Shown here piece by piece: positions 1,501 through 48,008 of a stretch of 64,000 nt of DNA. A program made the translations under genes and the position numbers. Position 1 is the stretch's first letter, and every line of letters begins with the position of its first letter. Below the pieces are notes generated by a model. It did not search any database. It was not told the DNA's origin and worked only from the letters and a program-made list of their open reading frames with translations. The DNA comes from a virus, in the IMG/VR virus record IMGVR_UViG_3300028840_006907, positions 1-64,000 of that record. One strand, written 5' to 3'.

Positions 1501-2574
1501 TTATTCTTTGTCCTGTTGAATTAATGTATTGTTATATTCAGTATTAAAAATTAGTGTGTTATCAGCATTAGAATTACCTAGTAATATCTCTTTTATTTGA
1601 TCTATTTGTATTTCAATCTCTTGATTTGTTTTTACCGGGCAGTTATGGCTCTTATTATGGTAATTAAAATTGTCTATACCATTTGTTTCTGTATAGGTAA
1701 AATGATTATTGAGTCTTTCTTTTATATACCCGTTCATGAAATCAATATTATTGGTAAGATTATTTTCAATAATTTCTTTAAAATCATTATTATATTCAAT
1801 ACCTATACTATTTCTACCAGATGCCATAGCAGCTAGTGAGGTTGTACCGGTACCGAGAAATGGATCTAATATCACATCTCCTTTCAAGGAATACATATTA
1901 ATTAATCGGTATGGTAATTCAAAAGGAAAGGCAGCACTTCGCTCAATATTTTTATGATTAAGTTTTTGCTTTGTACCTTTAAAACTCCAAGTATCAGAGA
2001 ACCATTGATTCCTTTCTTCCCAGAAGAAAGCACTTTGTTTTCTTCTAAGTTTATCCTCAGGAGTGAGAAAGGTTCTTTTACCCATTTTTCTAAATATGAG
2101 TATGTATTCATTTTCCAGGGTTACATAAGCCCCTGCGGGAAGCATACCAGAACCCATGAATTTATTCGGGGCATTTGTTGGTTTTCTCCATAGGATTAAT
2201 GGAAGGGGAATAAGTCCTATATCCATACAGAAATCCATAACTCTGGCATGATTTGGGAATAATTGAAAAGTTTTATAAAATGTTCGAACAGCATCTCCGA
2301 TATTGAGGCAAGCAAAGCCACCGGGTTTTAGTACCCGATAACATTCTGACCATACTTTATCTAGCTCTTGATGCATAGCTTCAAAAAGTGCATTTGTTTT
2401 CATTTCTTTATCTGGTTTGATATCCAGAAAATCAAAGAACAGCATATCCCACATTTCTATCATAGGGTATGGAGGAGAAGTAATTATTAAATCAACACTA
2501 TTGCTCTTTAGTGGAAAGTTATCCCTAGAATCCCCAAAACGTATAATATGGTTAGTGATCATTGGTTCAGTCAT
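1501..2574 (-). CDS. DNA methyltransferase, beta-class amino-MTase (likely N4-cytosine or N6-adenine)
   Basis: Motif IV SPPY near N-terminus (LIITSPPYPMIEMWD) and motif I DPFLGTGTT near C-terminus; order IV then I. Confidence 0.8.
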   Translation of the reverse strand: MTEPMITNHIIRFGDSRDNFPLKSNSVDLIITSPPYPMIEMWDMLFFDFLDIKPDKEMKTNALFEAMHQELDKVWSECYRVLKPGGFACLNIGDAVRTFYKTFQLFPNHARVMDFCMDIGLIPLPLILWRKPTNAPNKFMGSGMLPAGAYVTLENEYILIFRKMGKRTFLTPEDKLRRKQSAFFWEERNQWFSDTWSFKGTKQKLNHKNIERSAAFPFELPYRLINMYSLKGDVILDPFLGTGTTSLAAMASGRNSIGIEYNNDFKEIIENNLTNNIDFMNGYIKERLNNHFTYTETNGIDNFNYHNKSHNCPVKTNQEIEIQIDQIKEILLGNSNADNTLIFNTEYNNTLIQQDKE

Positions 2575-3170
2575 AAATTGTAAATTCCTTCTAGTATTTC
2601 AGCTTTTGTTAATTTTATTCTTGAAGTAGACGGTATAACTGAATCCACTTCTTCTATTACTTCACTTAAATTTAAATTTAAAATATTTGTAATATGAATA
2701 TCAAAGTGTCTCGCTAGAGCTGTCGCGTAACTTGTCCCTCCTATATCTGGGCTATAACATAATACGATTCGGCTTAATTCATGTACGGGATCTGTATGTC
2801 CAATAATCTGATTTACATTACGTTCCATTAATAATTGCACACCACGTTCCATTTCTTGATAAGGTTTTCTGGCAACAAGATCGCACATAAATTCAGCTAT
2901 TTCTTTTTCTCGTTCAGGAATAATAGCATTGCCGATAACTTCCATCCCTGGATCATTCTTATAGGGTCTAATCCCATAAGTTTTCCAAGGTAGGTAGATA
3001 TCGGCAAAACCGTTTGCACCCTTTTCACAGGCTCTATCGGCTCCTACAGCGTGCCCACTACGTAATTTCAATTTGTAGGTATCTACAATAAATCTGCTAA
3101 CATTTTCAAGAATATTTAAATATTTTTCTGGAGTATTACGGCTACCGATTCCTGTAAAAAAACCATCCAT
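2571..3170 (-). CDS. DprA/SLOG-like Rossmann-fold protein
   Basis: FTGIGSRNTP and RSGHAVGADRACEKGA resemble DprA/Smf-SLOG nucleotide-binding motifs; 4-nt overlap with MTase gene. Confidence 0.45.
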   Translation of the reverse strand: MDGFFTGIGSRNTPEKYLNILENVSRFIVDTYKLKLRSGHAVGADRACEKGANGFADIYLPWKTYGIRPYKNDPGMEVIGNAIIPEREKEIAEFMCDLVARKPYQEMERGVQLLMERNVNQIIGHTDPVHELSRIVLCYSPDIGGTSYATALARHFDIHITNILNLNLSEVIEEVDSVIPSTSRIKLTKAEILEGIYNL

Positions 3171-4224: not shown

Positions 4225-5053
4225 AATCAATTTCTTCCGATAAGAGTAATTTGAAAAATGTTTCAGCCAATTCTTGTTCAAAGAATTTTGGCTCTCGAAT
4301 TTTTATAGTATCAAGCTTTAATAGATCTGCAAATGAATCAATTTTGATATCAATCTCTGGATCTATTAAAGGTTGACACCATTCCATCTCTTTCAACATA
4401 TCTGGTGTGAGAAATGTTTTTGCAATAAAAATATCCCCTAAATCTTCCAGGGCCAAGACTCCCATTCGAATATTTAAATAGCAATAACCATCTTTCATAG
4501 CATATTCTTTATTGCTATTTAAGATTAATCCGACTAGGATATCAGCACTAGTTGGGTCAGTTTTATAAATCCTTTTTAAATCCTCTGTGAGGGGGCTGTA
4601 TGCCCTTGGATCCACTCGTTCTTCTAGTCGCTCAATGCAGTGTGAGGTGACGAAGATATTCCCACAGGAGCCCCTATTCGGGCTCCCATACAATATCCCG
4701 CTATTTTTTATTTTATATACTCTATTGAAGTTAGTTTGGTAGGAAGCATTCCCTACACCTTTGAATTTTATATTGGTTAAGTTTATCCAGCGACCATATT
4801 TAGATCTTAATTTTTGTAGGATTTTTTCTTTTATGGCTTTTTGTTTTCGTTGAGGAATTCTTTTTTTCTGGTAATTTTTTCCACATATTTCATCGAATGT
4901 GCGGGACCAGATGATACTTATCATTGCATCTGGATGTTCTTCGAACGTTGATACGTTATCTTTACCGAAATGTTTTTTTAAAAGTTTTAGGTAATAATTT
5001 TCTTCTTCTTTGCCGTATTTGCTTACTATCCATTGAGAGGGATTCTTTTTCAC
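4217..5053 (-). CDS. hypothetical protein
   Basis: 278-aa ORF overlapping SpoVG-like gene stop by 4 nt. Confidence 0.5.
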   Translation of the reverse strand: MKKNPSQWIVSKYGKEEENYYLKLLKKHFGKDNVSTFEEHPDAMISIIWSRTFDEICGKNYQKKRIPQRKQKAIKEKILQKLRSKYGRWINLTNIKFKGVGNASYQTNFNRVYKIKNSGILYGSPNRGSCGNIFVTSHCIERLEERVDPRAYSPLTEDLKRIYKTDPTSADILVGLILNSNKEYAMKDGYCYLNIRMGVLALEDLGDIFIAKTFLTPDMLKEMEWCQPLIDPEIDIKIDSFADLLKLDTIKIREPKFFEQELAETFFKLLLSEEIDYE

Positions 5054-5307
5054 TTGTTTAGCTCCGCTTCGTATTCATCTAATACGGCATTTTCAATAAG
5101 TATTCTGGTTTCATTTTGTATTGGATGTACCATATCTACAATTTTACCAGTTTTTGTTTTTCTGCTTGGCATTGCTACAAAGTGCCCTTGCGCTCCTTCA
5201 ATAATTTTCAATCCTCGGACAATAAAGCAATCATCAAGAACAATATCAACAAAAGCTCTTACATTTCTGCTTCTATGCATTGTTACTTTTATTTCAGTAA
5301 TTTCCAA
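5050..5307 (-). CDS. spoVG: SpoVG-family nucleic-acid-binding protein
   Basis: MEITEIKV...FVAMPSRKT...HPIQNETR matches the conserved SpoVG core along its length. Confidence 0.85.
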   Translation of the reverse strand: MEITEIKVTMHRSRNVRAFVDIVLDDCFIVRGLKIIEGAQGHFVAMPSRKTKTGKIVDMVHPIQNETRILIENAVLDEYEAELNK

Positions 5308-5352: not shown

Positions 5353-6360
5353 TTAATCTACCCATTGAATTTTTCTACGGTACTGACCTGTTACTTCATC
5401 TATATCAGAGACATTTCCTGCTTCCTTTACTATTAAATTTAATTTACGTTTTAATTCTAGCTGAAGATCATCACTTTTTATTATTTCGGGAGAAGTATGT
5501 TTCTCCAAAAAATTATTTTTTAAATCAAGCAATTGTTTTTCAATGCTCACATCTCCAACAAAATTGAGTTCTGAAAAATCATCAATAAATTTTTTAAGTG
5601 AATTAATAGTAGGGCCTTTAACAATTTTCCCTGATTTCATATTGGTGGCGATTTTATCACAAAGAGTTACTACTTGTTCACGAAGATTTGTAACAACCTC
5701 ATTGATAAAAGAACCAATCTTTTCTTGGGCCTCTTTCTGATAAACATCGTAGGCAATATTCTCTTTTGCAATTTTATCTTCAGAAACTTTTCTCATTTTC
5801 GGTAGAGCAATTTCAAATATATTCCAGGTTAAAGAGAACCTATTTCTTAATGAAGTTGTGCTTGGATAGTATGATTTTATTCGGTCAAGAAAATTTGTGA
5901 CGAATTCTTCCTCTTCGTTTTCTTTACCTTCAATACTGAATTCATGAACACCTATTTTTGTTTGTCGGTTATAGGCAGCTTTGGCTGCTTCCTCATAAAT
6001 AGGTAGCATCTCTTTTCGTAATTTGTCGTAATCAACAATCAGGTTATCGATTAATTTATTATATGCCTCCTGATATTCCTGAAGAGTTTGCAGTATTTTT
6101 AAAAATTTCTTTTTGGGTACAAACCGTGCTGAACTTATAGGGAATTTAAAACTGTTCGTCTCAACTAGAAACCGAGCTTTACTTTCAATAGATCTGAATT
6201 TATGTATGGTTTCTTTTGGAACGAGCATCTTCTTACCAAGAAGATAAACATTAGATATAGTGTCTTTTTCTAATCCCAAGTCTTGAGCAGTCAGGATTTT
6301 TGCTCCAGTCCAGAACCGCACTTTAATTTCAACTAAAACACCATCTTTAAATATATCCAT
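5353..6360 (-). CDS. DUF3150-like protein (plasmid/phage-associated)
   Basis: N-terminal VLVEIKVRFWTGAKILTAQDLGL pattern recalled as typical of DUF3150; 335 aa. Confidence 0.4.
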   Translation of the reverse strand: MDIFKDGVLVEIKVRFWTGAKILTAQDLGLEKDTISNVYLLGKKMLVPKETIHKFRSIESKARFLVETNSFKFPISSARFVPKKKFLKILQTLQEYQEAYNKLIDNLIVDYDKLRKEMLPIYEEAAKAAYNRQTKIGVHEFSIEGKENEEEEFVTNFLDRIKSYYPSTTSLRNRFSLTWNIFEIALPKMRKVSEDKIAKENIAYDVYQKEAQEKIGSFINEVVTNLREQVVTLCDKIATNMKSGKIVKGPTINSLKKFIDDFSELNFVGDVSIEKQLLDLKNNFLEKHTSPEIIKSDDLQLELKRKLNLIVKEAGNVSDIDEVTGQYRRKIQWVD

Positions 6361-6386: not shown

Positions 6387-6420
6387 CTGTCCCTTTAATG
6401 AAAAAGGGACAGTGTTTTTT
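6387..6420 (+). terminator. hairpin plus T-run oriented for plus-strand transcription
   Basis: ctgtcccttt...aagggacag stem followed by tgtttttt, overlapping stop of 6419-7981 gene. Confidence 0.35.
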
Positions 6421-7981
6421 ATAAGTTTAATTTCCTTTTACCTATTACCTGTTCAGCCTTCATCTCTATTGAAGCTTTTTTCACTCTACGTTTTTCAGAC
6501 CATTCACGGCCTTTCTTAATATCCTCGGCATAAAGCTGTGCTGTAAGTGATACTTCTTTAGCACTTGTAACAAGATCTTCAGTGGAGATTTCCTGATTTT
6601 TGCTGAATGAAAATTTCAGAGTATCATTAATCCAAACTTCAATTTCAGATCCACTAAAATCTTTAGTGGATTTAACTAATTGCTTTATGTCGAAGTTGCT
6701 GGGGTCACGATTTATTTTTCCCAAATGTATTGAGATAATTTTCTCTCGTTCACTATCATAAGGGAAATCAACCCAGAAGATTGCATCCATACGACCACCA
6801 CGAATTAGTTCAGGAGGTAGTTTCGTTGCATCGTTTGAAGTAGCTGCAATGAATACATCAGTTGTTCTTTCAGCCATCCAGGTTAAAAGTGTTGCTAGCA
6901 TTTTTTGAGAAGTCTCATGAACATGCCCACTTTTATTATTAGGAAAAGCTTTTTCGATTTCATCTATTCGTAAGACACAGGGAGCATTTGCATCAACGAT
7001 ACTGAGACATCTTCTTATTTTCTCTTCTGATTCTCCTACAAGACTGCCTAAGAGTGCACCTACATCAAGACTGAATAATGGTCGTTCCCAAACATTGGCG
7101 ATAACTTTTGCAACAAGAGATTTCCCGGTTCCAGGAGGGCCTACGAATAGGGCACCTTTGGGAGGAAGTATTCCATATTCTCTGGCTTTCTCAGTGAAAC
7201 AATTCTTTCTAACCAGGAGCCATTCTTTAAGGTTATCAAGTCCACCAATGTCATCAAGAGTTTCTGTTACACTAATAACATTTAAGAGCCCTGTGTTTTT
7301 AACAACTGTGGCTTTTTCTCTATTAATAACATTAATGTCAAGACATTTTCTTTCAACAATGGAAAGAGAATAAGCATTCTCAGCTTCATCAGATGTCATT
7401 CCTAAGGCTGCTTCAATAAGGGAAGTATCGTTTTTGGGGTACTCTATGGAATCTTCAACTGATCTAGCGTTTTCATAAGCTCGTTGACATACTTTTCTTA
7501 AAGTATTTGTATTTGGAAGTTTAAAATCAATTACAGTTATTTCTTTCTTTAATTCATCTGGTATTGATGAACAGCAAGAAACAACAGCCAAAACTCTACC
7601 GGTAGATCTGCAGATTGGAATTATATTTCGTATTTTTCGTTGAATAAAATCTTTTTTAATATAATGGTGGAAATCTAATAGAAAAAAGATAGAATTCTCT
7701 TCCACCTCTTCTGAACTTATCCAATTAAGAGCCAACATTGGATCATCTGTTTTAGTTTTTATATCTAATTTATTTTCTAAAAGGATATTATTATCATTTA
7801 TTTCTCGGAGTTTGATTCCATCAACTCTGTCCCAAGAATAAAATTTATAATTTCCTTTGTCAAGTTTGTTCATTTCATTTGCTAGGGTTCTTATCGCCCT
7901 ATGTTCTTCATGGGTCTGTATCCACAAAATTGTATAACCGGCACGTATATAATTTGAAAAGATGTGTTCTTTATTTTCCAT
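6419..7981 (-). CDS. AAA+ ATPase with N-terminal domain of unknown function
   Basis: Walker A GPPGTGKS, Walker B VLRIDEIEKA, sensor region TSNDATKLPPELIRGGRMD. Confidence 0.85.
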   Translation of the reverse strand: MENKEHIFSNYIRAGYTILWIQTHEEHRAIRTLANEMNKLDKGNYKFYSWDRVDGIKLREINDNNILLENKLDIKTKTDDPMLALNWISSEEVEENSIFFLLDFHHYIKKDFIQRKIRNIIPICRSTGRVLAVVSCCSSIPDELKKEITVIDFKLPNTNTLRKVCQRAYENARSVEDSIEYPKNDTSLIEAALGMTSDEAENAYSLSIVERKCLDINVINREKATVVKNTGLLNVISVTETLDDIGGLDNLKEWLLVRKNCFTEKAREYGILPPKGALFVGPPGTGKSLVAKVIANVWERPLFSLDVGALLGSLVGESEEKIRRCLSIVDANAPCVLRIDEIEKAFPNNKSGHVHETSQKMLATLLTWMAERTTDVFIAATSNDATKLPPELIRGGRMDAIFWVDFPYDSEREKIISIHLGKINRDPSNFDIKQLVKSTKDFSGSEIEVWINDTLKFSFSKNQEISTEDLVTSAKEVSLTAQLYAEDIKKGREWSEKRRVKKASIEMKAEQVIGKRKLNL

Positions 7982-7998
7982 TTTTCAATTCCTTGAAT

Positions 7999-8202
7999 TT
8001 AAAATTGATTGACTATCTGCTTTATTACTAAAATTCTATTAAGGATTTTATTGTAGGATAGATTTAATTCGTTTTGAATATCTTTAAATGAATAGTTATT
8101 CAGAAAATAAAAAGATGCTATAGTATAAGTTATCCTATCTACTTTTGACTTTAAATAATTCATAATGTCTTTGGAATAATTATTTGCATGTGGCATATTC
8201 AT
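7999..8202 (-). CDS. sigma-70 region-4-like HTH protein
   Basis: ITYTIASFYFLNNYSFKDIQNELNLSYNKILNRI is paralogous to C-terminus of 8180-8800 product. Confidence 0.35.
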   Translation of the reverse strand: MNMPHANNYSKDIMNYLKSKVDRITYTIASFYFLNNYSFKDIQNELNLSYNKILNRILVIKQIVNQF

Positions 8203-8800
8203 TATCCTTTGACTTTGAAAACTTATATACTATTTGTTTAATTTTTGTAATTTTTCTGAGGATTGTATTGTAGGATACTTTTGCAGTATCTTGAATTTCT
8301 TTCATTGAATAACAATCCAGAAGATAAAGACATGCAATGAAATAAGTTATATCATTGAGTTGATTTCTTAGATATTTCATGGTTTCATCAGAGATCAAAG
8401 TATCATCTATTGTTTCGTTAAAGTTAGGCCGGGTAGTATAATCAATATGATTTTTAAGGGTTTTATTATTATTCCTTTCTTCACCATCACTATTATTTTC
8501 ACGCATTGTGATATACATATCAATAGGGAAAAATTTAGGTCTTCGTGATATTGTTCTTATGTAATGAAGGGCATAGCCTTGAACTTTATGTACAAAATAT
8601 GTTTTTAAATAACATCCTTTTGAAAGATCATATTGTTCAAGTAACTCGGATTCAGCTAGTTTTAAAATGAGGTGTTGAAACATCTCACATGGTTCAACAA
8701 TTTTCACAAATTTCATAATGTGAAAATTTAAAATATAATCAATTTCTTCTCTGTTTAGGGTATAGAATTCCCAGAAGTCAGGGTGATATTTTAAATCCAT
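8180..8800 (-). CDS. putative sigma-factor-like transcription protein
   Basis: C-terminal ITYFIACLYLLDCYSMKEIQDTAKVSYNTILRKI resembles sigma-70 region 4.2 HTH. Confidence 0.4.
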   Translation of the reverse strand: MDLKYHPDFWEFYTLNREEIDYILNFHIMKFVKIVEPCEMFQHLILKLAESELLEQYDLSKGCYLKTYFVHKVQGYALHYIRTISRRPKFFPIDMYITMRENNSDGEERNNNKTLKNHIDYTTRPNFNETIDDTLISDETMKYLRNQLNDITYFIACLYLLDCYSMKEIQDTAKVSYNTILRKITKIKQIVYKFSKSKDNEYATCK

Positions 8801-8809
8801 AATAAAACC

Positions 8810-9064
8810 TCATTTTGTGAGACCATCAATTTCTTTCTGGACATTGGTCCAATATTCATGGTCGGTTCCGTTTCCTTTAATTGTGTTAATTTTTTCTCGA
8901 ATCCTTTTTGTTTCTTTCGAGATTTGTCTTTGTGTATTTATGTTTGAAACAGCTCTGTCAGATAGATCATGTGACAGAGCATCAAATGATTTTCCTATAG
9001 CATTCATGATCTTTCTAAGAAAGATCAGTATAGCGATAAGTCCGATAAATGCTAAAAGGGCCAT
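8810..9064 (-). CDS. small membrane protein
   Basis: N-terminal hydrophobic helix ALLAFIGLIAILIFL. Confidence 0.4.
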   Translation of the reverse strand: MALLAFIGLIAILIFLRKIMNAIGKSFDALSHDLSDRAVSNINTQRQISKETKRIREKINTIKGNGTDHEYWTNVQKEIDGLTK

Positions 9065-9220: not shown

Positions 9221-9499
9221 TCAATAGGTGTTAAAATCTCTGTTTTCTTCTTCATTATCTACCTCTGTATCTTGATAATACTCTGATTTCATTTCTCTAT
9301 TTTCTGTTTTATTACCAAAGGCTTTTTCAATAAATTCAGTTTTTTCAATACATTCATTACCTACAAAGCCCTCAGTTTCTTTATGGACAGTTTTACCATC
9401 CCATTCAAATGTTAATTTTATTTCAGGCATTGTTTTCATTCCTTTTTTGATTTGCTTCTTCAAATAGTTTGATAATAGTGCTATCATGAATAAATTCAT
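9221..9499 (-). CDS. hypothetical protein (start uncertain)
   Basis: ORF overlaps upstream gene; internal Met likely true start. Confidence 0.3.
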   Translation of the reverse strand: MNLFMIALLSNYLKKQIKKGMKTMPEIKLTFEWDGKTVHKETEGFVGNECIEKTEFIEKAFGNKTENREMKSEYYQDTEVDNEEENRDFNTY

Positions 9500-9743
9500 G
9501 TTCTTTTATAAAACCATGCTCTTCAAAAGTACTTCTTATTCCATGCATGATTAAATTGTAACGATTCATTAAGTCAGGAATTTTATCATCGGATTTAAGA
9601 ATGTTTATCATTTTCTTTCTATGTTTAATATTTATAATGATTGAGGTAATCATAATAGCAATAATAAAAGCCACAATAGAAAAAACTATTGTCATTACTA
9701 TACTTACATCTTGTAGAAAAAATTTTTGAATATTATTATACAT
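9423..9743 (-). CDS. membrane protein
   Basis: Hydrophobic helix VMTIVFSIVAFIIAIMITSIII. Confidence 0.4.
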   Translation of the reverse strand: MYNNIQKFFLQDVSIVMTIVFSIVAFIIAIMITSIIINIKHRKKMINILKSDDKIPDLMNRYNLIMHGIRSTFEEHGFIKEHEFIHDSTIIKLFEEANQKRNENNA

Positions 9744-10134
9744 AAGCTCTTAATACTATACGATCCTCTTCATCAACAGTTTCTTCATAACTTAAACACA
9801 TTGAATCATATTCTGATTTGGCCCTTTCAACATTATAATAAGTGAAAAGTTTCTTCTGCCACTCTTCACCATATCCATTTGCTTCATCAATATGAGCTAT
9901 ATAATTTCCTTCAACAGTTTGTTCAAAACCGAAGTCATTATGGTAATTACCAATATGTTCTTTACGGATAATAATATGACCTAGTTTTTCTGTTGGATTT
10001 CCTTGCCAATCATTTAACTTATTTGCTATATCAAATATCTCAATCTGCTCCTCGGTAAAACCCATTCGAATCAAGGCTTTAACCAAAGAATCTTTATCGT
10101 TGATTATTGTCACTATGTCAACGTAATGACTCAT
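9736..10134 (-). CDS. hypothetical protein
   Basis: 132-aa ORF. Confidence 0.5.
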   Translation of the reverse strand: MSHYVDIVTIINDKDSLVKALIRMGFTEEQIEIFDIANKLNDWQGNPTEKLGHIIIRKEHIGNYHNDFGFEQTVEGNYIAHIDEANGYGEEWQKKLFTYYNVERAKSEYDSMCLSYEETVDEEDRIVLRAYV

Positions 10135-12355: not shown

Positions 12356-13540
12356 TTATCCTCTTACATAATCAGTTACACAGTTAATTTCATCATCACT
12401 TATCCAGGCACCGTGATATCGTTCAGGTTCAGAAGCACCAGGATAAATCATTAACATATCTCCCTTACCGGCCAGAGCTTCAGCTCCATTGCAATCAAGA
12501 ATAACTCTGGAATCATTTTTGGATGATACTTGGAATGAGATCCTTGAAGGCATATTGGATTTAATAAGACCAGTGATAACTTTAACGATAGGCTTTTGAG
12601 TTGCAAGTACCAGATGGATACCTACTGCTCTGGCTAATTGAGCCAACCGTACGATCATTTTCTCAAGTTCTTTACCTGAAGTCATCATAAGATCAGCCAT
12701 CTCATCAACCACAGTTACTATATAAGGAAGTTTTGTATCGGAATTTTTATTAAAACTTTCGATATTTCTTACTCGATAATCAGCTAAGAGTTTATATCTA
12801 CGATCCATTTCTTCAATTAAATCTGAGAACACATGCACCGCTTCTGAGGGCTCGGTAACCACAGGGCATCTCAGGTGGGATAAATTATTATATGACGCCA
12901 TTTCCACTCTCTTGGGATCGACAAGGACAAGCTGGCATTCATCTGGTGTTCGAGTAAATAATATTGAAAGAAGAATACTATTTATACATACAGATTTACC
13001 TGATCCAGTTTGACCTGCGATTAAAAGATGAGGCATAGTAGTCAAATCGATTATTTTTGGATTACCAATAGTATCGGTTCCAAGTACGATGGGAATCTTG
13101 GTATTGGAATCAGTGGTAAAGATATCACGGAAACCGATAATGGATCTTGTTTCATTCATCATTTCTATTCCAACACAAGCTGTACCTGGAATGGGTGCTT
13201 GGATTCTGATATTGGATGACATTAAAGCCATTGCGATATCTTCAGTGATCTTTTTAATCTGAGCAATCCTTACACCTTTTGATAATTTCAGTTCATATCG
13301 GGTAACCACTGGGCCATGTTTAATATCCTGGACAGCAGTATCGAATCCAAGTTCAGCGATCCTGTTTTCAAGATCATGAGAGCTTAAACTGTTGGGTATT
13401 CTATTGGATGAATACTCGTTTAAGAGTCCTAAATGAGGTTTTCTATATCTTTTGTTTTTCTTCTTTTTACATGCATCTTCCTCGGAATTAAGGAGTTGCA
13501 TTACATTTAAGAGCTTTCTGAATTTTGTTGATTTGTTCAT
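12356..13540 (-). CDS. FtsK/SpoIIIE-family DNA translocase motor (alpha/beta domains only)
   Basis: GPVVTRYEL, APIPGT..VGIE, Walker A GQTGSGKS, Walker B VVDEMADLMM; no N-terminal TM or gamma domain. Confidence 0.8.
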   Translation of the reverse strand: MNKSTKFRKLLNVMQLLNSEEDACKKKKNKRYRKPHLGLLNEYSSNRIPNSLSSHDLENRIAELGFDTAVQDIKHGPVVTRYELKLSKGVRIAQIKKITEDIAMALMSSNIRIQAPIPGTACVGIEMMNETRSIIGFRDIFTTDSNTKIPIVLGTDTIGNPKIIDLTTMPHLLIAGQTGSGKSVCINSILLSILFTRTPDECQLVLVDPKRVEMASYNNLSHLRCPVVTEPSEAVHVFSDLIEEMDRRYKLLADYRVRNIESFNKNSDTKLPYIVTVVDEMADLMMTSGKELEKMIVRLAQLARAVGIHLVLATQKPIVKVITGLIKSNMPSRISFQVSSKNDSRVILDCNGAEALAGKGDMLMIYPGASEPERYHGAWISDDEINCVTDYVRG

Positions 13541-13556
13541 AATTCCTCCACAATAT

Positions 13557-13571
13557 ATTATACGAGATCTC
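13557..13571 (-). promoter_or_regulatory. GAGATCTC palindrome fused to TATAAT box upstream of FtsK-like gene
   Basis: Minus strand reads GAGATCTCGTATAAT, then GGAGG and ATG at 13540. Confidence 0.4.
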
Positions 13572-15269: not shown

Positions 15270-17330
15270 TTATTCCACAGTGCGAACAAGTAAATATTTA
15301 GCTCCATTATATGTTGGAAAGTATGAATAATAATTTCCTCTATTGAAGAAACTTTCGGTCATAGTAAATTTTACCATTGGATCAATTACTGATGGACCAG
15401 TATAATCAGTTTGTGATTCACCTGGAATCGCATTTTCATATTTATCATTCAATCTGATCTCTCCCAGGACCACTACACCATTATTAAATGCGTAATGGAA
15501 TTCAGCTTCAGTAGAAATTCGGAATCCATTCTTGGTCAGATCCATTTGAATATCCAAACTATCAGTATAAGTATAAGCTGTATCCAATCCAGCACCTTTT
15601 GATTTCTCGTTACAGTATTTTATTGCTTCAAAGTAATTACCTAAACTGTAGGTAGTAGTATCAAACCAGAAATCATAACTGAAACTGACATCGATAGGAG
15701 GTAAAGGAAACCAATGATATTGGTATACATTATTCTGTAATTTACCGAACATGGTAGATTGATTTTTCGATTTTATCTTATACTCACCATTAAATAGGAA
15801 AAGAACTTTAAGTGTAACAGTATCCAAAGCAGTATTACCATCATCATCGGTAACCCGAAGGACACATTCAATAACAGAATCTGAGTTCATTGGAATAACA
15901 TATTCATATTTACTGGTATCTGTAGCAGATTCATCTGTAACAAATGTTCCGGTATTCCCAATGTCCCATTCCCATTTTACAATGTGACCATAGCCATCTG
16001 TGGCAGTACCATGAAGAATAACTGTATCTCCTACAACAATCATAGAGTCACTGTTATTAACGAGGAAAGAAGGTCTGCACTGTCCTTCAACAAAGGTACT
16101 CGCTATAGGCTCATCTTTGACCACTGTAACAGTTATTTGATCTGAAGATGTGTTACCATCATTATCAGTAACTCGAACCACATAGACCATATCACCATTT
16201 CTTTGTCCGGTGACATCGGGAACAATCACTGAGGTGTCACCTGTGCTTGTTTCTTTAAATCCTTCACCATTAATATCCAGTTCCCATTTTGAGATTCCTC
16301 TGCTACCGATAGGGTCAGTGGCAATACAGGTAATATGGATTGTATCATAGATACTAACAGTAGTATCATTTCCTATAATCTGTACTTCTGGTTTTGCATT
16401 TTCTGCACTAAAGGGAGGAATTTCAATATCACCAGCTATACTATTGAAAAGAATATTTGGACTTTGACCGATAAGTTTATCTTGGTTATTAAATACATCC
16501 ACATACACATTATATTTATTTGTACCTACAGAATAAATGAAGTAAACGAAACCACTATAGGTATTACTGGAAGTATTATGCCAGAGTTCAGCGGTCTTGG
16601 TACCATTGATATCATCACCAGTAATATTGGCTTGGATAAGGCTGATTGTATCAGGGAAAAACATAGGTAAGTATAAGTTTCCATAGATATCTCTCTGTAT
16701 GACAAACAGATCCGGTAGGGTATCAATCCATTCACTGATATTGGTAGTAGAGAGTACTTGGTTATCTTTAATCAGATTTAGAGTATCATTAATATCATCT
16801 TGTGATAATCTAGCAAAGACACCACCACTGATTGTGGCATTGTCCCCGATCCGGGTTAAACTTGGTTTACCTCTATCATAGAGACTTGGTGATTTAAAGT
16901 TATGTACTTTATTGCCAATCTTTAATTGAACGATATACATTTGTGCTGATAAACCAGTGGCAGGATTAATTGAATAGTTACCAGGATCAAGTTTTCGGTT
17001 TAAAGCAGTGAAGACATTTTGACCACTCAGATTATATACCTTAATAGAAACCTGAGTTTTCTTAAGAACCGGGAACCAGAGTCGAGAGTTATCATATTTA
17101 ATTGTATTAAGGGATACTGAAGATTGGTTTTTAATATCATTGGAAAGTTTTGATAAGATATAGATACCATCAGCACCGGTAGTATCAGAAATACCTTGTC
17201 CTTTTAATGTCGCAATAACGCCAAACATCGGACTGTTATTGTTGTCCAGAACCTTACCTGTAATATATAAGTCCTGGGCATTAACTGTAATTAATAAAAA
17301 TAAAACGATAAGAATAAAAGATTTGTACAT
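15270..17330 (-). CDS. secreted multi-domain protein with CarboxypepD_reg-like and PKD-like repeats
   Basis: Signal peptide MYKSFILIVLFLLITVNA; GKVLDNNNSPMFGVIATLKGQGISDTTGADGIYIL; two VRVTD(N/D)DGNT PKD-like units. Confidence 0.7.
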   Translation of the reverse strand: MYKSFILIVLFLLITVNAQDLYITGKVLDNNNSPMFGVIATLKGQGISDTTGADGIYILSKLSNDIKNQSSVSLNTIKYDNSRLWFPVLKKTQVSIKVYNLSGQNVFTALNRKLDPGNYSINPATGLSAQMYIVQLKIGNKVHNFKSPSLYDRGKPSLTRIGDNATISGGVFARLSQDDINDTLNLIKDNQVLSTTNISEWIDTLPDLFVIQRDIYGNLYLPMFFPDTISLIQANITGDDINGTKTAELWHNTSSNTYSGFVYFIYSVGTNKYNVYVDVFNNQDKLIGQSPNILFNSIAGDIEIPPFSAENAKPEVQIIGNDTTVSIYDTIHITCIATDPIGSRGISKWELDINGEGFKETSTGDTSVIVPDVTGQRNGDMVYVVRVTDNDGNTSSDQITVTVVKDEPIASTFVEGQCRPSFLVNNSDSMIVVGDTVILHGTATDGYGHIVKWEWDIGNTGTFVTDESATDTSKYEYVIPMNSDSVIECVLRVTDDDGNTALDTVTLKVLFLFNGEYKIKSKNQSTMFGKLQNNVYQYHWFPLPPIDVSFSYDFWFDTTTYSLGNYFEAIKYCNEKSKGAGLDTAYTYTDSLDIQMDLTKNGFRISTEAEFHYAFNNGVVVLGEIRLNDKYENAIPGESQTDYTGPSVIDPMVKFTMTESFFNRGNYYSYFPTYNGAKYLLVRTVE

Positions 17331-17497
17331 AAAAGTAACTCCTTTAATTTTAATGTGTATGATCCATATTACTTAACCTCAATATTTCGAGGACATTACA
17401 AAATCTTAATAAATTATACCCAGAAAATTTCAAATAAACAAGATTAAAGTTTTAGCATTTACTTGTGAGAAAGTTATTGGTAGGTACTCCTAAATGT

Positions 17498-18539: not shown

Positions 18540-19607
18540 TTATGGTTTAAATTCTTTATCTATGGCATATTTAATCAATCCAGAGAAATGTTCCAAAACA
18601 TCTGGATATTGAATTGAATTAAATATTTCATGGGATAAATTAGAATTATATTTTTGATTATCTACAGTAATATAAGGAGCGAAAGTTTTACCTACAGTTC
18701 TGTAATATAATTTTTCAAATTTATTTAAATTATTTGGAAATTTATCAACAAATTCAAATTCCTTTACATTTAGCATATTTAAAATAACGGAAAAGTATTC
18801 TTTATGTAATGGAGGATTTGGGTTTATTATATTAAGTTCTGTAAAATCTTCATTGATAGATTTACATATGATTTTAGCAACATAATCTACAGGAACAATA
18901 TTAAGAGTTTCATTTAAATTAATGTGGATTCTAATTGGCATATCCATTTTATATCTATAAAAAAAGTATGCCCAACCATAGAATACATCAAATTTTAAAG
19001 TAATATATAAAGGGAAATCAATTAAACGACCACAGATAACTGAAGGTCGTAATATCTGATAATGAATATTATATTTTTTACAATAACTTGATATATATGT
19101 TTCCATAGTTGATTTAGTTTCTTCATAGGGATTTCTATAAATATTTTTAATTCTATTTACAAATGCTGTACTTATATAAATAAATTTATAAAGTTTTTTA
19201 CTATCGATATTATTTATCAAATTTATAGTTCCCAAATTATTATTTAATAAAAGTTCTTGTTCTGTAGCTTTATCTGTCATTAAATTTGTTGAAGCGGCAC
19301 AATGTATTACTGTCAATTTCTTAGTATCAATATTAGAAATTATATGAAATAATTCTTTACAATTTAAATGACATGGGATAATTTGAAACCTTTCTTTAAG
19401 TATATTTATTGAATATTTCTTTATGAATTCTGGAATATTTTCTGGAGCAAAAATATTTATGCCTCTTTCTATAGGAGTCATATTATTAAAAGGTCTAATT
19501 AATAAAAAAAGTTTAGATGATGAATTATATCTAATAATTTTTTCAAGCAATTCAAAAAAGATATGACTACCTAATAGACCTGTAACGCCTGTAATTAAAT
19601 AATCCAT
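18540..19607 (-). CDS. NAD(P)-binding epimerase/thioester-reductase-like protein
   Basis: N-terminal ITGVTGLLGSH Rossmann motif, YISTAFV, YEETK (YxxxK). Confidence 0.55.
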   Translation of the reverse strand: MDYLITGVTGLLGSHIFFELLEKIIRYNSSSKLFLLIRPFNNMTPIERGINIFAPENIPEFIKKYSINILKERFQIIPCHLNCKELFHIISNIDTKKLTVIHCAASTNLMTDKATEQELLLNNNLGTINLINNIDSKKLYKFIYISTAFVNRIKNIYRNPYEETKSTMETYISSYCKKYNIHYQILRPSVICGRLIDFPLYITLKFDVFYGWAYFFYRYKMDMPIRIHINLNETLNIVPVDYVAKIICKSINEDFTELNIINPNPPLHKEYFSVILNMLNVKEFEFVDKFPNNLNKFEKLYYRTVGKTFAPYITVDNQKYNSNLSHEIFNSIQYPDVLEHFSGLIKYAIDKEFKP

Positions 19608-20973: not shown

Positions 20974-21882
20974 TCAATACTTCGACTGATTACATCCATG
21001 ATTAAATTTGTATTCATTTAATTCATCATTGGACATATGTCCATGTTTCTTGATCGTTTCTTCTAAAATCTGAGGTAATAACTTTTCACCCCAAACTCCC
21101 ATGTTCGGGACAATCTCTCCTCTTGAATTTTTGGATTTGGTAGGGTCTCCTTCAAGAGCATTGGCTCTGATTTTATTTCGTTCCAGTAGCTCCCATTCCT
21201 CATAGTCCTCACGATAAAATCTGTACAACCATAAAAGTTCGATCTCACTCATGAAAGGACATAATAAACAGTTCGATGGATAAGGCACATGCAAGCCCGT
21301 AGAGGCCATGTAATCCTGGCAATCCTTTCTATCCATTCCCATCTCTATGAGTGGATAGATAACCTCTATGGCTTTCTCCTGCCATTTTGGGCGCTCACCC
21401 TTGTTAACACGTTTTTCTTCTCCTTTGGCAATACCGATAAGCATATTGATTTTATCATATGTTTCAGCAAATTGTTTCAATCCTTTCTTTCTTCCTGATT
21501 TAAATCCATATTCTTTTTGAATCCAGTATTCGAGATATTTATATATAGGTCTCAATTTAAGTCTTTCGGTACAAGTTTTGGGAAAACATTTGCTTCCAAT
21601 TCTATTTTTTGTTTTATAGAAAAATCTTAATGTTTGCCAGTCGGGAGAGTGGAATCCCATGTCGTTTGTAAGATGAACAAATTCTACTACATTTTGAGAA
21701 CAGAATTCCTTTATAAATTGTATATGTTTATAGGTATGGGGATGCTCATCACCAGTATCGGCCATGATCACCAAAAGCCGTCCTGGTGCATATTTTTTTC
21801 TGAAATTGTTATCGAGGGCGTACTTGTAAAGTAAAGTGGTGCTGTCTTGTCCGCCCCCGTAACTTAAGACCGTAAGTTCCAT
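20974..21882 (-). CDS. PAPS-reductase/ATP-sulfurylase-like (adenine-nucleotide alpha-hydrolase) protein
   Basis: N-terminal LSYGGGQDSTTLL PP-loop variant of SGGxDS. Confidence 0.65.
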   Translation of the reverse strand: MELTVLSYGGGQDSTTLLYKYALDNNFRKKYAPGRLLVIMADTGDEHPHTYKHIQFIKEFCSQNVVEFVHLTNDMGFHSPDWQTLRFFYKTKNRIGSKCFPKTCTERLKLRPIYKYLEYWIQKEYGFKSGRKKGLKQFAETYDKINMLIGIAKGEEKRVNKGERPKWQEKAIEVIYPLIEMGMDRKDCQDYMASTGLHVPYPSNCLLCPFMSEIELLWLYRFYREDYEEWELLERNKIRANALEGDPTKSKNSRGEIVPNMGVWGEKLLPQILEETIKKHGHMSNDELNEYKFNHGCNQSKY

Positions 21883-23887: not shown

Positions 23888-23903
23888 TATATCCTCCTTA
23901 ATT

Positions 23904-23918
23904 ATTATAAGAGATCTC
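23904..23918 (-). promoter_or_regulatory. GAGATCTC palindrome fused to TATAAT box
   Basis: Minus strand reads GAGATCTCTTATAAT, then AGGAGGA and ATG. Confidence 0.4.
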
Positions 23919-41465: not shown

Positions 41466-42086
41466 TTACCAGTCCCAGCACCGGGCACATTCCAAACATC
41501 CCGATACTTCATGCCAGACTGCAAGACAGTCCAGAGGATGTTTAGGAACGTTTTTAACTACTGAACCATGACAGTGGTAGGGAAATACTATAATGATTCG
41601 GGGATCATCTGGAACAGTATCTACGTCTCTCCTAGGGCCAAAACACATCTTACCTGGAAATTTACTCCAGACTTTCTTTGGAGTTGTAGCATCGATACTT
41701 AATAATAATCTGAGATTAGGTAATTGATCATTAATGACCTTTGCTATTTCAGGTTTCCTTGTCATGCCATAGAACATAGTTTTAGGGCATTCATTAGCGA
41801 GGTTAATAATATTATTCACGTGATCAGGTAATAGATCACCACATCCATTTAAACGTACTGCATGACAGTTTTTACATTCGACTATGACTTTGAGTAGATC
41901 ATTACCGGTGAAGTAATCAGAAACATAGTTCTGTTTTTTCACGGTATTGGGTAAAGCCATATGTCCGGATCGGGCATAGCAAAGTTTCTGACATAACTTA
42001 CTAGGTCTACAATGCCCTTTCATGGGAAAGTTTATTGAGACACCAGTTTTCTTGTTTTCAGAAATGATAGTTAATGGAGTATACAT
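41466..42086 (-). CDS. Cys-cluster protein, possibly phage Gp37/Gp68-like
   Basis: N-terminal GHCRPSKLCQKLCYA cluster; weak resemblance only. Confidence 0.3.
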   Translation of the reverse strand: MYTPLTIISENKKTGVSINFPMKGHCRPSKLCQKLCYARSGHMALPNTVKKQNYVSDYFTGNDLLKVIVECKNCHAVRLNGCGDLLPDHVNNIINLANECPKTMFYGMTRKPEIAKVINDQLPNLRLLLSIDATTPKKVWSKFPGKMCFGPRRDVDTVPDDPRIIIVFPYHCHGSVVKNVPKHPLDCLAVWHEVSGCLECARCWDW

Positions 42087-43926: not shown

Positions 43927-43966
43927 AATGAATATCCTTTTAAAGATTACGGTTCGGTATCATATA

Positions 43967-43978
43967 TTATACGAGATT
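43967..43978 (-). promoter_or_regulatory. CGTATAAT-type box upstream of 42628-43926
   Basis: Minus strand reads ATCTCGTATAAT; half-palindrome variant of the GAGATCTC motif. Confidence 0.35.
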
Positions 43979-46877: not shown

Positions 46878-48008
46878 TTAACCAACAAGATCTAAGATCT
46901 TATCAAGGGTTTCATTCTTTTCTTTCATTTGAACTGTAGGATTAGGATTATGTGAAGTCTCTTCAGGAGATTCAATTAATTCCAATACAGTTTCGAGAGC
47001 ATTGGATTTTAATTGAGCACCACTACCTACCCACGCACTATCGGCACGGGCTTGTTCTTGAGTAGTATATCCAGACGTAGATGTTACTCTACTAGGTCTT
47101 TTATGATCCACGTAATTAGTAACAGCATTCACCAAAGCCATACCCGTTCCAGCTTGTTCCGGGATAGCATTATCATCATTATCATTAAATAGTTTAGCTA
47201 TCTCAAGGGCTTTATCAGATTTCTTATCTGATTGTTCCCATTTCTCACCAAAGATACGAGTCATAGTCTGTGCAAAAAGTTCTTTGGTAACTTTATGAGT
47301 AATAATCTTTTCAAACTTTTCTTTAAGAGAATTTATATCCTGTTTTAATCCGGTTTGAATCTCAGTGGTTATTTTATTAAGTTTCTCTTTAGCACCTTTG
47401 GTATGTCTTACTTTAATCATTGCATCCTTAGTGCCTTTAGATAAGGCAAAATTCAAAGTGTTCTGACATACTACCCGTACATCGGTGAGCATAATTGTAT
47501 TACTCATAGTTCCATCATGAGCACTCATAAACATGATAAATGTTTCGTGTTTATCATTTCCGATGGAAGCGTTAAAGGGGACACGGGCCAAAGCCCAGAC
47601 ACGTTCTCCACGTCCTAAAACTCCGGCAGCTTCATAATGTGCACCATCAATCTGTTCTAAGACATTATCAATCCATCCACCGATTTCAATATTTTGCGTA
47701 GGTTCATAGGTATTACCTACGATACCAAGGGCGCTTTCCTTACCAGTTAAATCGGAACGAAAGATACCAAATTGATTCGGGAAAACATATCCTTTAGGTA
47801 CAGTGCTTCCAGGTTTCCATAAAGGATTCTTAAAGAATAACGGCCTTTTTTCGACCGTCCAATCTAATTGAGCCAGTTCATAAGCTTCTTTCCAGGTCAT
47901 TGCATGATTGACCATTTGTCCTAGTTCATGCCACGGTAAACCATGTTCATCTATGGCATATGCAGCCGATACTAAACCGTTTTTTGCTGTAAATAAATTA
48001 TGAGCCAT
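46878..48008 (-). CDS. DUF932-like phage/plasmid protein
   Basis: N-terminal AYAIDEHGLPWHELG...MTWKEAYELAQLDWTVEKRPL pattern recalled as typical of DUF932. Confidence 0.5.
   Translation of the reverse strand: MAHNLFTAKNGLVSAAYAIDEHGLPWHELGQMVNHAMTWKEAYELAQLDWTVEKRPLFFKNPLWKPGSTVPKGYVFPNQFGIFRSDLTGKESALGIVGNTYEPTQNIEIGGWIDNVLEQIDGAHYEAAGVLGRGERVWALARVPFNASIGNDKHETFIMFMSAHDGTMSNTIMLTDVRVVCQNTLNFALSKGTKDAMIKVRHTKGAKEKLNKITTEIQTGLKQDINSLKEKFEKIITHKVTKELFAQTMTRIFGEKWEQSDKKSDKALEIAKLFNDNDDNAIPEQAGTGMALVNAVTNYVDHKRPSRVTSTSGYTTQEQARADSAWVGSGAQLKSNALETVLELIESPEETSHNPNPTVQMKEKNETLDKILDLVG

Follow-up and report, generated by a model that had tools for sequence, protein, structure and literature searches.

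A divergent sigma factor and a free-standing copy of its region 4 in a conserved gene block of a probable huge phage

Sigma factors encoded by mobile elements are common. In jumbo phages, free flap-binding helix-turn-helix (HTH) proteins (T4 gp33) and minimal sigma factors with a single HTH have been described (Iyer et al. 2021, PMC7824862). Here we analysed positions 1 to 64,000 of IMG/VR virus record IMGVR_UViG_3300028840_006907 (64 kilobases, kb; hereafter the window), which belong to a huge mobile element, and focused on three adjacent genes that encode a sigma-like protein, a small protein resembling its C-terminal domain and an AAA+ ATPase. Our preferred joint reading, which we hold with about as much confidence as doubt, is that a real, divergent sigma factor lies in a conserved gene block, that a duplicate of its region 4 present in this lineage only is likely translated and would act as a competitor, and that the AAA+ ATPase is a mere neighbour.

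The three open reading frames (ORFs) are tightly packed on the minus strand, and their order in transcription is the sigma gene (8800-8180), the mini-ORF (8202 or 8196-7999) and the AAA+ gene (7981-6419). A sequence-only reading of the same DNA had proposed these ORFs, and all three were confirmed, with lengths of 206 amino acids (aa; 8180-8800), 67 aa (7999-8202) and 520 aa (6419-7981). Its description of the AAA+ gene as preceding the two HTH genes is correct in plus-strand coordinates only, since in transcription the AAA+ gene comes last. The mini-ORF overlaps the end of the sigma gene by 23 nucleotides (nt) and is read in a different frame. No other ORF or frame in the window resembles the sigma factor or the mini-ORF product, so there are no further paralogues within it.

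Profile searches and structure prediction strongly support that the 206-aa protein (8180-8800, minus strand) is a genuine, very divergent sigma-70-family factor of the size of extracytoplasmic function (ECF) sigma factors, with both region 2 (sigma2) and region 4 (sigma4). The NCBIfam profile for sigma70-ECF proteins, TIGR02937, aligned with residues 37-189 over model positions 28-159 of 165 (E = 2e-6). The sequence-only reading had suggested a search with sigma-family profiles and had named the lack of any hit among the results that would refute it; this search returned a match over both domains, and that outcome did not occur. That reading had also described the product as ending in a region-4-like HTH; sigma4 is indeed present, but the protein is more than an HTH end, because it has a sigma2 domain too. 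Sigma2 spans approximately residues 9-102 (nt 8776-8495) and sigma4 approximately residues 131-203 (nt 8410-8192), and in the AlphaFold (AF2) model they are separated by a disordered linker (residues 107-130). The model consists of two helical domains with a predicted local distance difference test (pLDDT) score of 84, rising above 95 in the N-terminal domain. When it was used as a Foldseek query, the top-ranked matches were almost all sigma factors and extended over both domains.

Two results weigh against this assignment. The 206-aa protein scored 27.4 bits on TIGR02937, below the curated cut-off of 42.9, and it had no match to Pfam Sigma70_r2 or r4 at E ≤ 1. The sub-threshold score is compensated by the wider family, because 36 of the 38 aligned full-length members match TIGR02937, with a best E of 2e-16. 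The only close homologue, P0002, itself matches over both domains with E = 1e-8. A profile search of 1.84 billion representatives placed the protein in a family of 117 related clusters, counted at 50% identity, whose members are mostly 190-230 aa long. Against the PDB, the family profile found Fusobacterium sigma-H (3mzy) at full length (E = 1.5e-12), followed by FliA, SigA and RpoE chains; the 3mzy alignment begins at profile position 36 and covers the DLvQE-type region 2.1/2.2, and the profile also matched sigma4 segments of PDB entries. The protein has a family-specific N-terminal helix with a DFWxFY motif. Neither the sigma factor nor the surrounding region had a DNA or protein match in cultured phage genomes and plasmids, and a scan of IMG/VR with the sigma factor returned no match. 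Some relatives are longer, with C-terminal extensions of 130-270 aa past sigma4 (468 aa at L013/L014:4469-5875 and 341 aa at L019:4983-6008); the genes for these extended sigma factors still directly precede an AAA+ gene.

Alignment and structural modelling confirm that the predicted product of the mini-ORF (7999-8202, minus strand) is a complete free-standing sigma4 domain; it is a real sequence feature and a putative gene. The earlier suggestion that this product is a free copy of the C-terminal HTH of the 206-aa protein was borne out: an ungapped alignment pairs its residues 10-67 with residues 137-194 of the sigma factor, and 28 of 58 positions are identical (48%; E = 8e-16), a resemblance well above chance. 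Translation could begin at ATG 8202, giving 67 aa, or at ATG 8196, giving 65 aa. The second of these codons has an AAGGA motif 8 nt upstream, whereas the first is only 2 nt away from it, and because this spacing suits ATG 8196 the product is probably 65 aa long, which is also the length given by public gene calls. Shine-Dalgarno motifs precede ∼60% of window genes of at least 80 aa, compared with 9% of all ATGs. There is an in-frame TAG 9 codons upstream of the mini-ORF ATG. The AF2 model of the 65-aa product (pLDDT 92) has four helices that form a complete sigma4 fold, and the ORF contains no sigma2. Its best Foldseek matches were the sigma4 domains, isolated or within complexes, of the ECF sigma factors SigL, SigE, SigR and SigD, with template modelling (TM) scores of 0.70-0.77; the SigE match is region 4 bound to −35 DNA. 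The repressors KorA and ArdK and YlxM-type proteins were also among the structural matches. Between the mini copy and its parent, helix 2 is identical at 7 of 12 positions and the C-terminal IKQIV of the last helix is unchanged, whereas in its N-terminal half the recognition helix has 5 differences over 10 positions (YNTILRKITK in the parent and YNKILNRILV in the mini copy).

Comparison of the two copies with each other and with related loci shows that the mini-ORF arose by tandem duplication of the ∼200-base-pair sigma4-coding 3′ end at the junction of the sigma and AAA+ genes, in this lineage only. In related loci the sigma stop codon overlaps the AAA+ start and no mini-ORF lies between them. 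The nearest relative of the mini-ORF product is the adjacent sigma4, at 48% identity, compared with 37-40% for P0002, P0003 and the sigma factor of locus L009, and the mini copy and its parent have in common seven residues that are derived relative to the outgroups P0002 and P0003. These two observations place the duplication within the lineage of the window. The copies are 66% identical in DNA, with a non-synonymous divergence (dN) of 0.39, a synonymous divergence (dS) of 0.78 and hence a dN/dS of 0.5. The same proteins are present on several independently assembled contigs of ∼469 kb. Since the copies are only 66% identical and recur on these contigs, the duplication is not an assembly artefact. 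At sites fixed in P0002 and P0003, the mini copy has accumulated 13 changes and the parent 2 (binomial P = 0.007), and the mini copy has diverged ∼6 times faster.

This history is open to a second explanation, in which the tandem duplication left the mini-ORF as a remnant that is still open but has no function, and the full-length sigma factor alone matters. We rate this as quite possible, though not as the probable outcome. Several observations favour it and tell against a functional duplicate. The mini-ORF occurs in no related locus examined, and the family search, with its 117 hits, returned a single region-4-only protein, the window's own product, so conservation gives no support for a function. 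The excess of changes in the mini copy and the paralogue dN/dS are also what early decay or a loosening of constraint would produce; with a constrained parent, the ratio for the pair corresponds to a value of ∼0.8-0.9 for the mini copy. The amino-acid similarity of the copies likewise fits neutral drift if about two-thirds of the divergence fell on the mini branch. On the other side, the 58 homologous codons are intact, ungapped and open, which happened in 4-9% of runs of a neutral simulation. The AAGGA motif is well spaced from an ATG that lies exactly at the domain boundary, many of the substitutions in the mini copy are conservative (E>D, L>V, L>F and K>R), the sigma4 fold is confidently predicted, and the surrounding DNA is tightly packed, with ∼9% intergenic sequence. 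None of the selection tests applied to the mini-ORF (dN/dS, codon-position pattern and neutral simulation) told function from decay. The open codons, the AAGGA motif and the high-confidence model count in favour of a gene.

The sequence-only reading had recommended looking for a promoter motif shared upstream of middle and late genes. In our search, k-mer enrichment in 36 intergenic regions of the window found no cognate promoter motif attributable to the 206-aa sigma factor and no ECF-like bipartite motif, which counts against our reading of the protein. What the enrichment did return was limited to one repeated 16-mer and to TATAAT or extended −10 elements of host type, and a consensus scan of the window found fewer sigma-70-like sites than in shuffled sequence. 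The 16-mer, ATCTCGTATAATATAT, occurs twice in exact form on the minus strand, at 13553-13568 and 43962-43977, where it lies 13 nt upstream of the start of an FtsK gene and 36 nt upstream of the start of a gene for a 432-aa protein, respectively. A related copy, GAGATCTCTTATAAT, is found at 23900-23915 (minus strand), and with up to 3 mismatches there are 7 matches to the 16-mer compared with 2.6 expected. A palindrome, GAGATCTC, precedes the TATAAT box in the FtsK copy and in the copy at 23900, and AAATCTC takes its place in front of the 432-aa gene. The repeated site looks like a putative host-type promoter with an operator. Extended −10 promoter-like sequences were found in intergenic DNA at 17419 (TGGGTATAATTT, minus strand) and 52712 (GGGGTATAATTT, plus strand). 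These extended −10 sites, along with the frequent Shine-Dalgarno motifs, suggest a host with Firmicutes-like rather than Bacteroidota expression signals.

The palindrome is relevant to a third explanation, namely that the mini-ORF product has become a small DNA-binding regulator in its own right, of the GerE, KorA/ArdK or YlxM type and with its own operator, and is not a competitor of the sigma factor. The structural matches to KorA, ArdK and YlxM-type proteins (TM ∼0.7), the replacement of five of ten residues in the first half of the recognition helix and the net basic charge of the protein agree with this idea, and the repeated TATAAT promoter-like sites of the window lie directly next to GAGATCTC. 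We nevertheless judge it unlikely. The product has no dimerisation element beyond its four-helix domain, and nothing links it to an operator. Also, the mini protein has valine in place of lysine at the position that we take to be equivalent to Escherichia coli SigE R176, and we count this loss of a basic residue against an independent regulator.

The third gene, at 6419-7981 (minus strand), encodes what is by its motifs a predicted active AAA+ ATPase of the classic clade. As the sequence-only reading had stated, it is an AAA+ ATPase with a long N-terminal domain. PF00004 matches residues 278-405 (E = 4e-30), and residues 1-∼235 (nt 7981-7277), which make up the N-domain, match no Pfam family. 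The profile phrog_8638 matches at full length (E = 2e-120), and the AAA module (residues ∼236-520) is closest to Cdc48 D2 (E = 3e-53). Walker A (GPPGTGKS, 281), Walker B (IDE, 339), sensor-1 (TSN, 381) and the arginine fingers of the second region of homology (RGGRMD, 394) are conserved in 118 homologues. Across the same homologues, pore loop 1 reads SLVGESE, with Leu/Val in place of the aromatic residue of the aromatic-hydrophobic-Gly loop that threads substrates; the p97 D2 pore loop is WFGESE. Residues 83-211 of the N-domain align weakly but in register with residues 325-459 of the protein's own AAA module (hhalign E = 0.005, probability 7%), and the N-domain may be a degenerate first AAA module.

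The sequence-only reading had combined the three genes into a plausible transcription-takeover module, an idea that our results support only in part. The sigma factor and the sigma4 copy are both there, but the AAA+ gene is not tied specifically to this pair. In the strong form of the idea, the sigma factor, the free sigma4 and the AAA+ protein would form a dedicated takeover machine, with the AAA+ protein as an unfoldase that remodels RNA polymerase, the sigma factor or an anti-sigma factor. In its favour, the AAA+ gene directly follows the sigma gene in five lineages (the window and loci L009, L011/L012, L013/L014 and L019), with stop/start overlap in three of these (L009, L011/L012 and L019), and the ATPase motifs are conserved. 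However, full-length AAA+ homologues occur without a sigma factor in several settings. In circular replicons of Candidatus Manganitrophus, an AAA+ homologue (32% identity over the full length, E = 3e-77) is directly followed by DUF1257, DUF2997 and DUF3150, and no sigma factor was found in these loci (L015:6854-9876 and L016:4854-7561; CP114559 and CP114562). Chromosomal homologues in bacteria have unrelated neighbours, and no sigma gene adjoins the homologues in Corndog-like mycobacteriophages, Rhizobium phage L338C and Aeromonas phage HJ05. Genes of ∼210 aa downstream of the AAA+ gene in L338C and HJ05 were considered as hidden sigma factors and rejected (hhalign probability 0.1%). Conversely, L002-L004 and the P0002 contig, which have the most closely related sigma factors, pass straight from the sigma gene to DUF3150 without an AAA+ gene, and the mini-ORF is outside the conserved arrangement. 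Because the AAA+ gene occurs without the sigma factor and the closest sigma relatives lack it, we conclude that it is no dedicated sigma accessory and regard a takeover machine of this kind as unlikely. Finally, a +1 ribosomal frameshift near the sigma end that fuses the mini-ORF into a sigma factor with two tandem sigma4 domains is very unlikely: the mini-ORF frame is +1 relative to the sigma gene, stays open for 9 codons upstream of its ATG and overlaps the sigma tail, but no slippery or shifty sequence could be recognised, the mini-ORF comes with a Shine-Dalgarno motif and an ATG of its own, and no relative's sigma factor in the family search carries a second sigma4.

The order in related loci is FtsK, further genes, DUF1257(-like), DUF2997, a protein of ∼85 aa, sigma, AAA+ and DUF3150. 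Synteny shows the AAA+ gene to be a variable member of this wider block, with DUF1257, DUF2997 and DUF3150 as its steady partners. In the window, DUF3150 marks the downstream end (5353-6360, minus strand; PF11348, E = 9e-11, and synteny), and in all related loci it follows the AAA+ or the sigma gene. The 69-aa DUF2997 protein lies upstream (9221-9430, minus strand; PF11211 on the public gene call); the Manganitrophus replicons and loci L011, L013, L019 and L022 have it in the corresponding place. Further upstream, a 132-aa protein (9736-10134, minus strand) resembles DUF1257 (Ycf35) at its N-terminus only: over its first 27 residues it shares 44% identity with a protein annotated as DUF1257 (pairwise E = 6e-4) and it has no Pfam match, which makes for a weak assignment. 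The distant member L022 has a weak DUF1257, then DUF2997, a gene for a 98-aa protein and the sigma gene. A SpoVG homologue (5050-5307, minus strand; PF04026, E = 6e-29) lies a few genes downstream of the sigma gene, past DUF3150, and is kept in L002:7065-7361 and L004:1964-2260. The genes for AAA+, DUF1257, DUF2997 and DUF3150 are also found together in large, unrelated replicons, whether or not a sigma factor accompanies them. Neither this association nor the gene block is described in the literature that we searched for DUF3150, DUF2997 and DUF1257. The block was also considered as a known anti-phage defence system and rejected: among the PADLOC defence profiles, the AAA+ protein had only generic AAA similarity to IetA and TRIP13, and the sigma factor, mini-ORF product, DUF3150 and DUF2997 had no match.

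Directly upstream of the sigma gene is an 84-aa protein with an N-terminal transmembrane helix (8810-9064, minus strand), identified from an alignment of six lineages and from synteny. Its counterparts are 26-45% identical across these lineages and always lie directly upstream of the sigma gene, as seen at L002:4933-5187, L011:5131-5403, L013:4002-4250, L019:4713-4979 and L022:1144-1440. The C-terminal part is helical and charged, and the protein matches no known family. This membrane protein of ∼85 aa could be a partner of the sigma factor or a membrane-anchored anti-sigma factor.

A sigma-A-type promoter-like site, TTGACA-17-TATTTT (10216-10188, minus strand), lies upstream of the DUF1257-like gene, within a gap of 147 nt. 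It agrees with the consensus at 10 of 12 positions, this being a match to consensus only, with no enrichment of such sites in the region, and it could be the promoter of the block. Because only host-type promoter-like elements were found near the co-directional array, we infer that host RNA polymerase would express the block from host-type promoters. The sigma factor would then steer the core enzyme of the host polymerase towards promoters that belong to the element. A free sigma4 domain, if produced, would plausibly modulate initiation as a competitor or decoy for a sigma4 ligand, and candidate ligands are the β-flap tip of RNA polymerase, a −35-like DNA element or a protein partner such as the 84-aa membrane protein. 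A more elaborate sigma-control circuit can be imagined, in which the membrane protein sequesters the sigma factor and the free sigma4 either titrates the membrane protein or occupies the β-flap, perhaps with a part for the AAA+ protein; we consider this speculative and improbable. It is equally doubtful that the 84-aa protein would serve in such a circuit as an unconventional, N-terminally anchored anti-sigma factor, and we attach similarly little weight to the idea that domain duplication provides anti-anti-sigma control that times the switch to element-specific transcription.

The source is a huge mobile element with a metagenomic contig of ∼469 kb. It is probably a huge phage, with a plasmid-like element as the less probable alternative. 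Small genes, long one-strand arrays and PHROG matches (FtsK-like, DUF932, PAPS reductase-like and DprA-like) fit a huge phage. Weighing against it, no virion hallmark gene turned up among 40 ORFs of the window scanned with PHROG and Pfam, and for this reason we call a phage takeover setting likely only. No tRNA and no Rfam family was found in the window. The other recognisable genes encode an N6/N4 DNA methylase (1501-2574), the DprA-like protein (2571-3170), the FtsK/SpoIIIE-like protein (12356-13540), a 686-aa PKD-domain protein (15270-17330), a nucleotide-sugar epimerase (18540-19607), the PAPS reductase-like protein (20974-21882), a GP88 family protein (41466-42086) and the DUF932 protein (46878-48008); most remaining ORFs had no family match. 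The coding strand switches near 51.5-52 kb, together with an inversion of GC skew.

These findings point to a sizeable unannotated sigma family (∼117 clusters) that Pfam misses and that has a fixed place in a conserved block of very large mobile elements. The mini-ORF adds a fresh case of a regulatory domain split into its own gene through partial tandem duplication, a process that could yield flap-binding co-factors like T4 gp33, or decoy regulators. Should the 65-aa protein prove functional, it would offer a simple, testable model for the modulation of RNA polymerase by a free sigma4. The association of AAA+, DUF1257, DUF2997 and DUF3150 is a lead on four families without known function.

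Among described systems, the 206-aa protein is most like ECF-type (group 4) and other two-domain sigma factors, including those of phages, with which it shares sigma2, a disordered linker and sigma4 within ∼200 aa. It differs from them in scoring below curated cut-offs, in having no Pfam r2 or r4 match and in its DFWxFY helix. In addition, its gene lies inside a DUF1257/DUF2997/AAA+/DUF3150 block with no classical downstream anti-sigma gene adjoining. The AAA+ protein belongs with COG0464-type (SpoVK/Ycf46/Vps4) ATPases that have an N-domain of ∼250 aa, represented by PHROG 8638, mycobacteriophage Corndog gp96 and Rhizobium phage L338C gp050. Homology to these extends over the full length, including the N-domain, and Walker A/B, sensor-1 and the arginine fingers are kept; what sets the window and its relatives apart is the position of the AAA+ gene directly after the sigma gene and the non-aromatic SLVGESE pore loop.

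For the mini-ORF product, two kinds of small protein invite comparison. GerE (1fse), KorA/ArdK (5clv and 7bcb) and YlxM/UPF0122 proteins (1s7o and 1xsv) have a similar size (∼65-110 aa) and the same helical HTH architecture and gave structural or profile matches, but the mini protein has no extra dimerisation segment and by sequence falls in the family of the adjacent sigma factor. T4 gp33, with its partner gp55, and the group 2 single-HTH sigma factors of jumbo phages resemble it as small free helical proteins encoded beside a phage sigma factor by a large phage-like element, an analogy of fold and size; by this analogy, the mini protein could occupy the β-flap site of RNA polymerase to which sigma region 4 normally binds. 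The partner sigma factor in the window keeps its region 4, whereas gp55 lacks one. In contrast to T4 gp33, the mini protein shows no evident sliding-clamp-binding tail and is a recent, still recognisable paralogue of region 4 of the neighbouring sigma factor.

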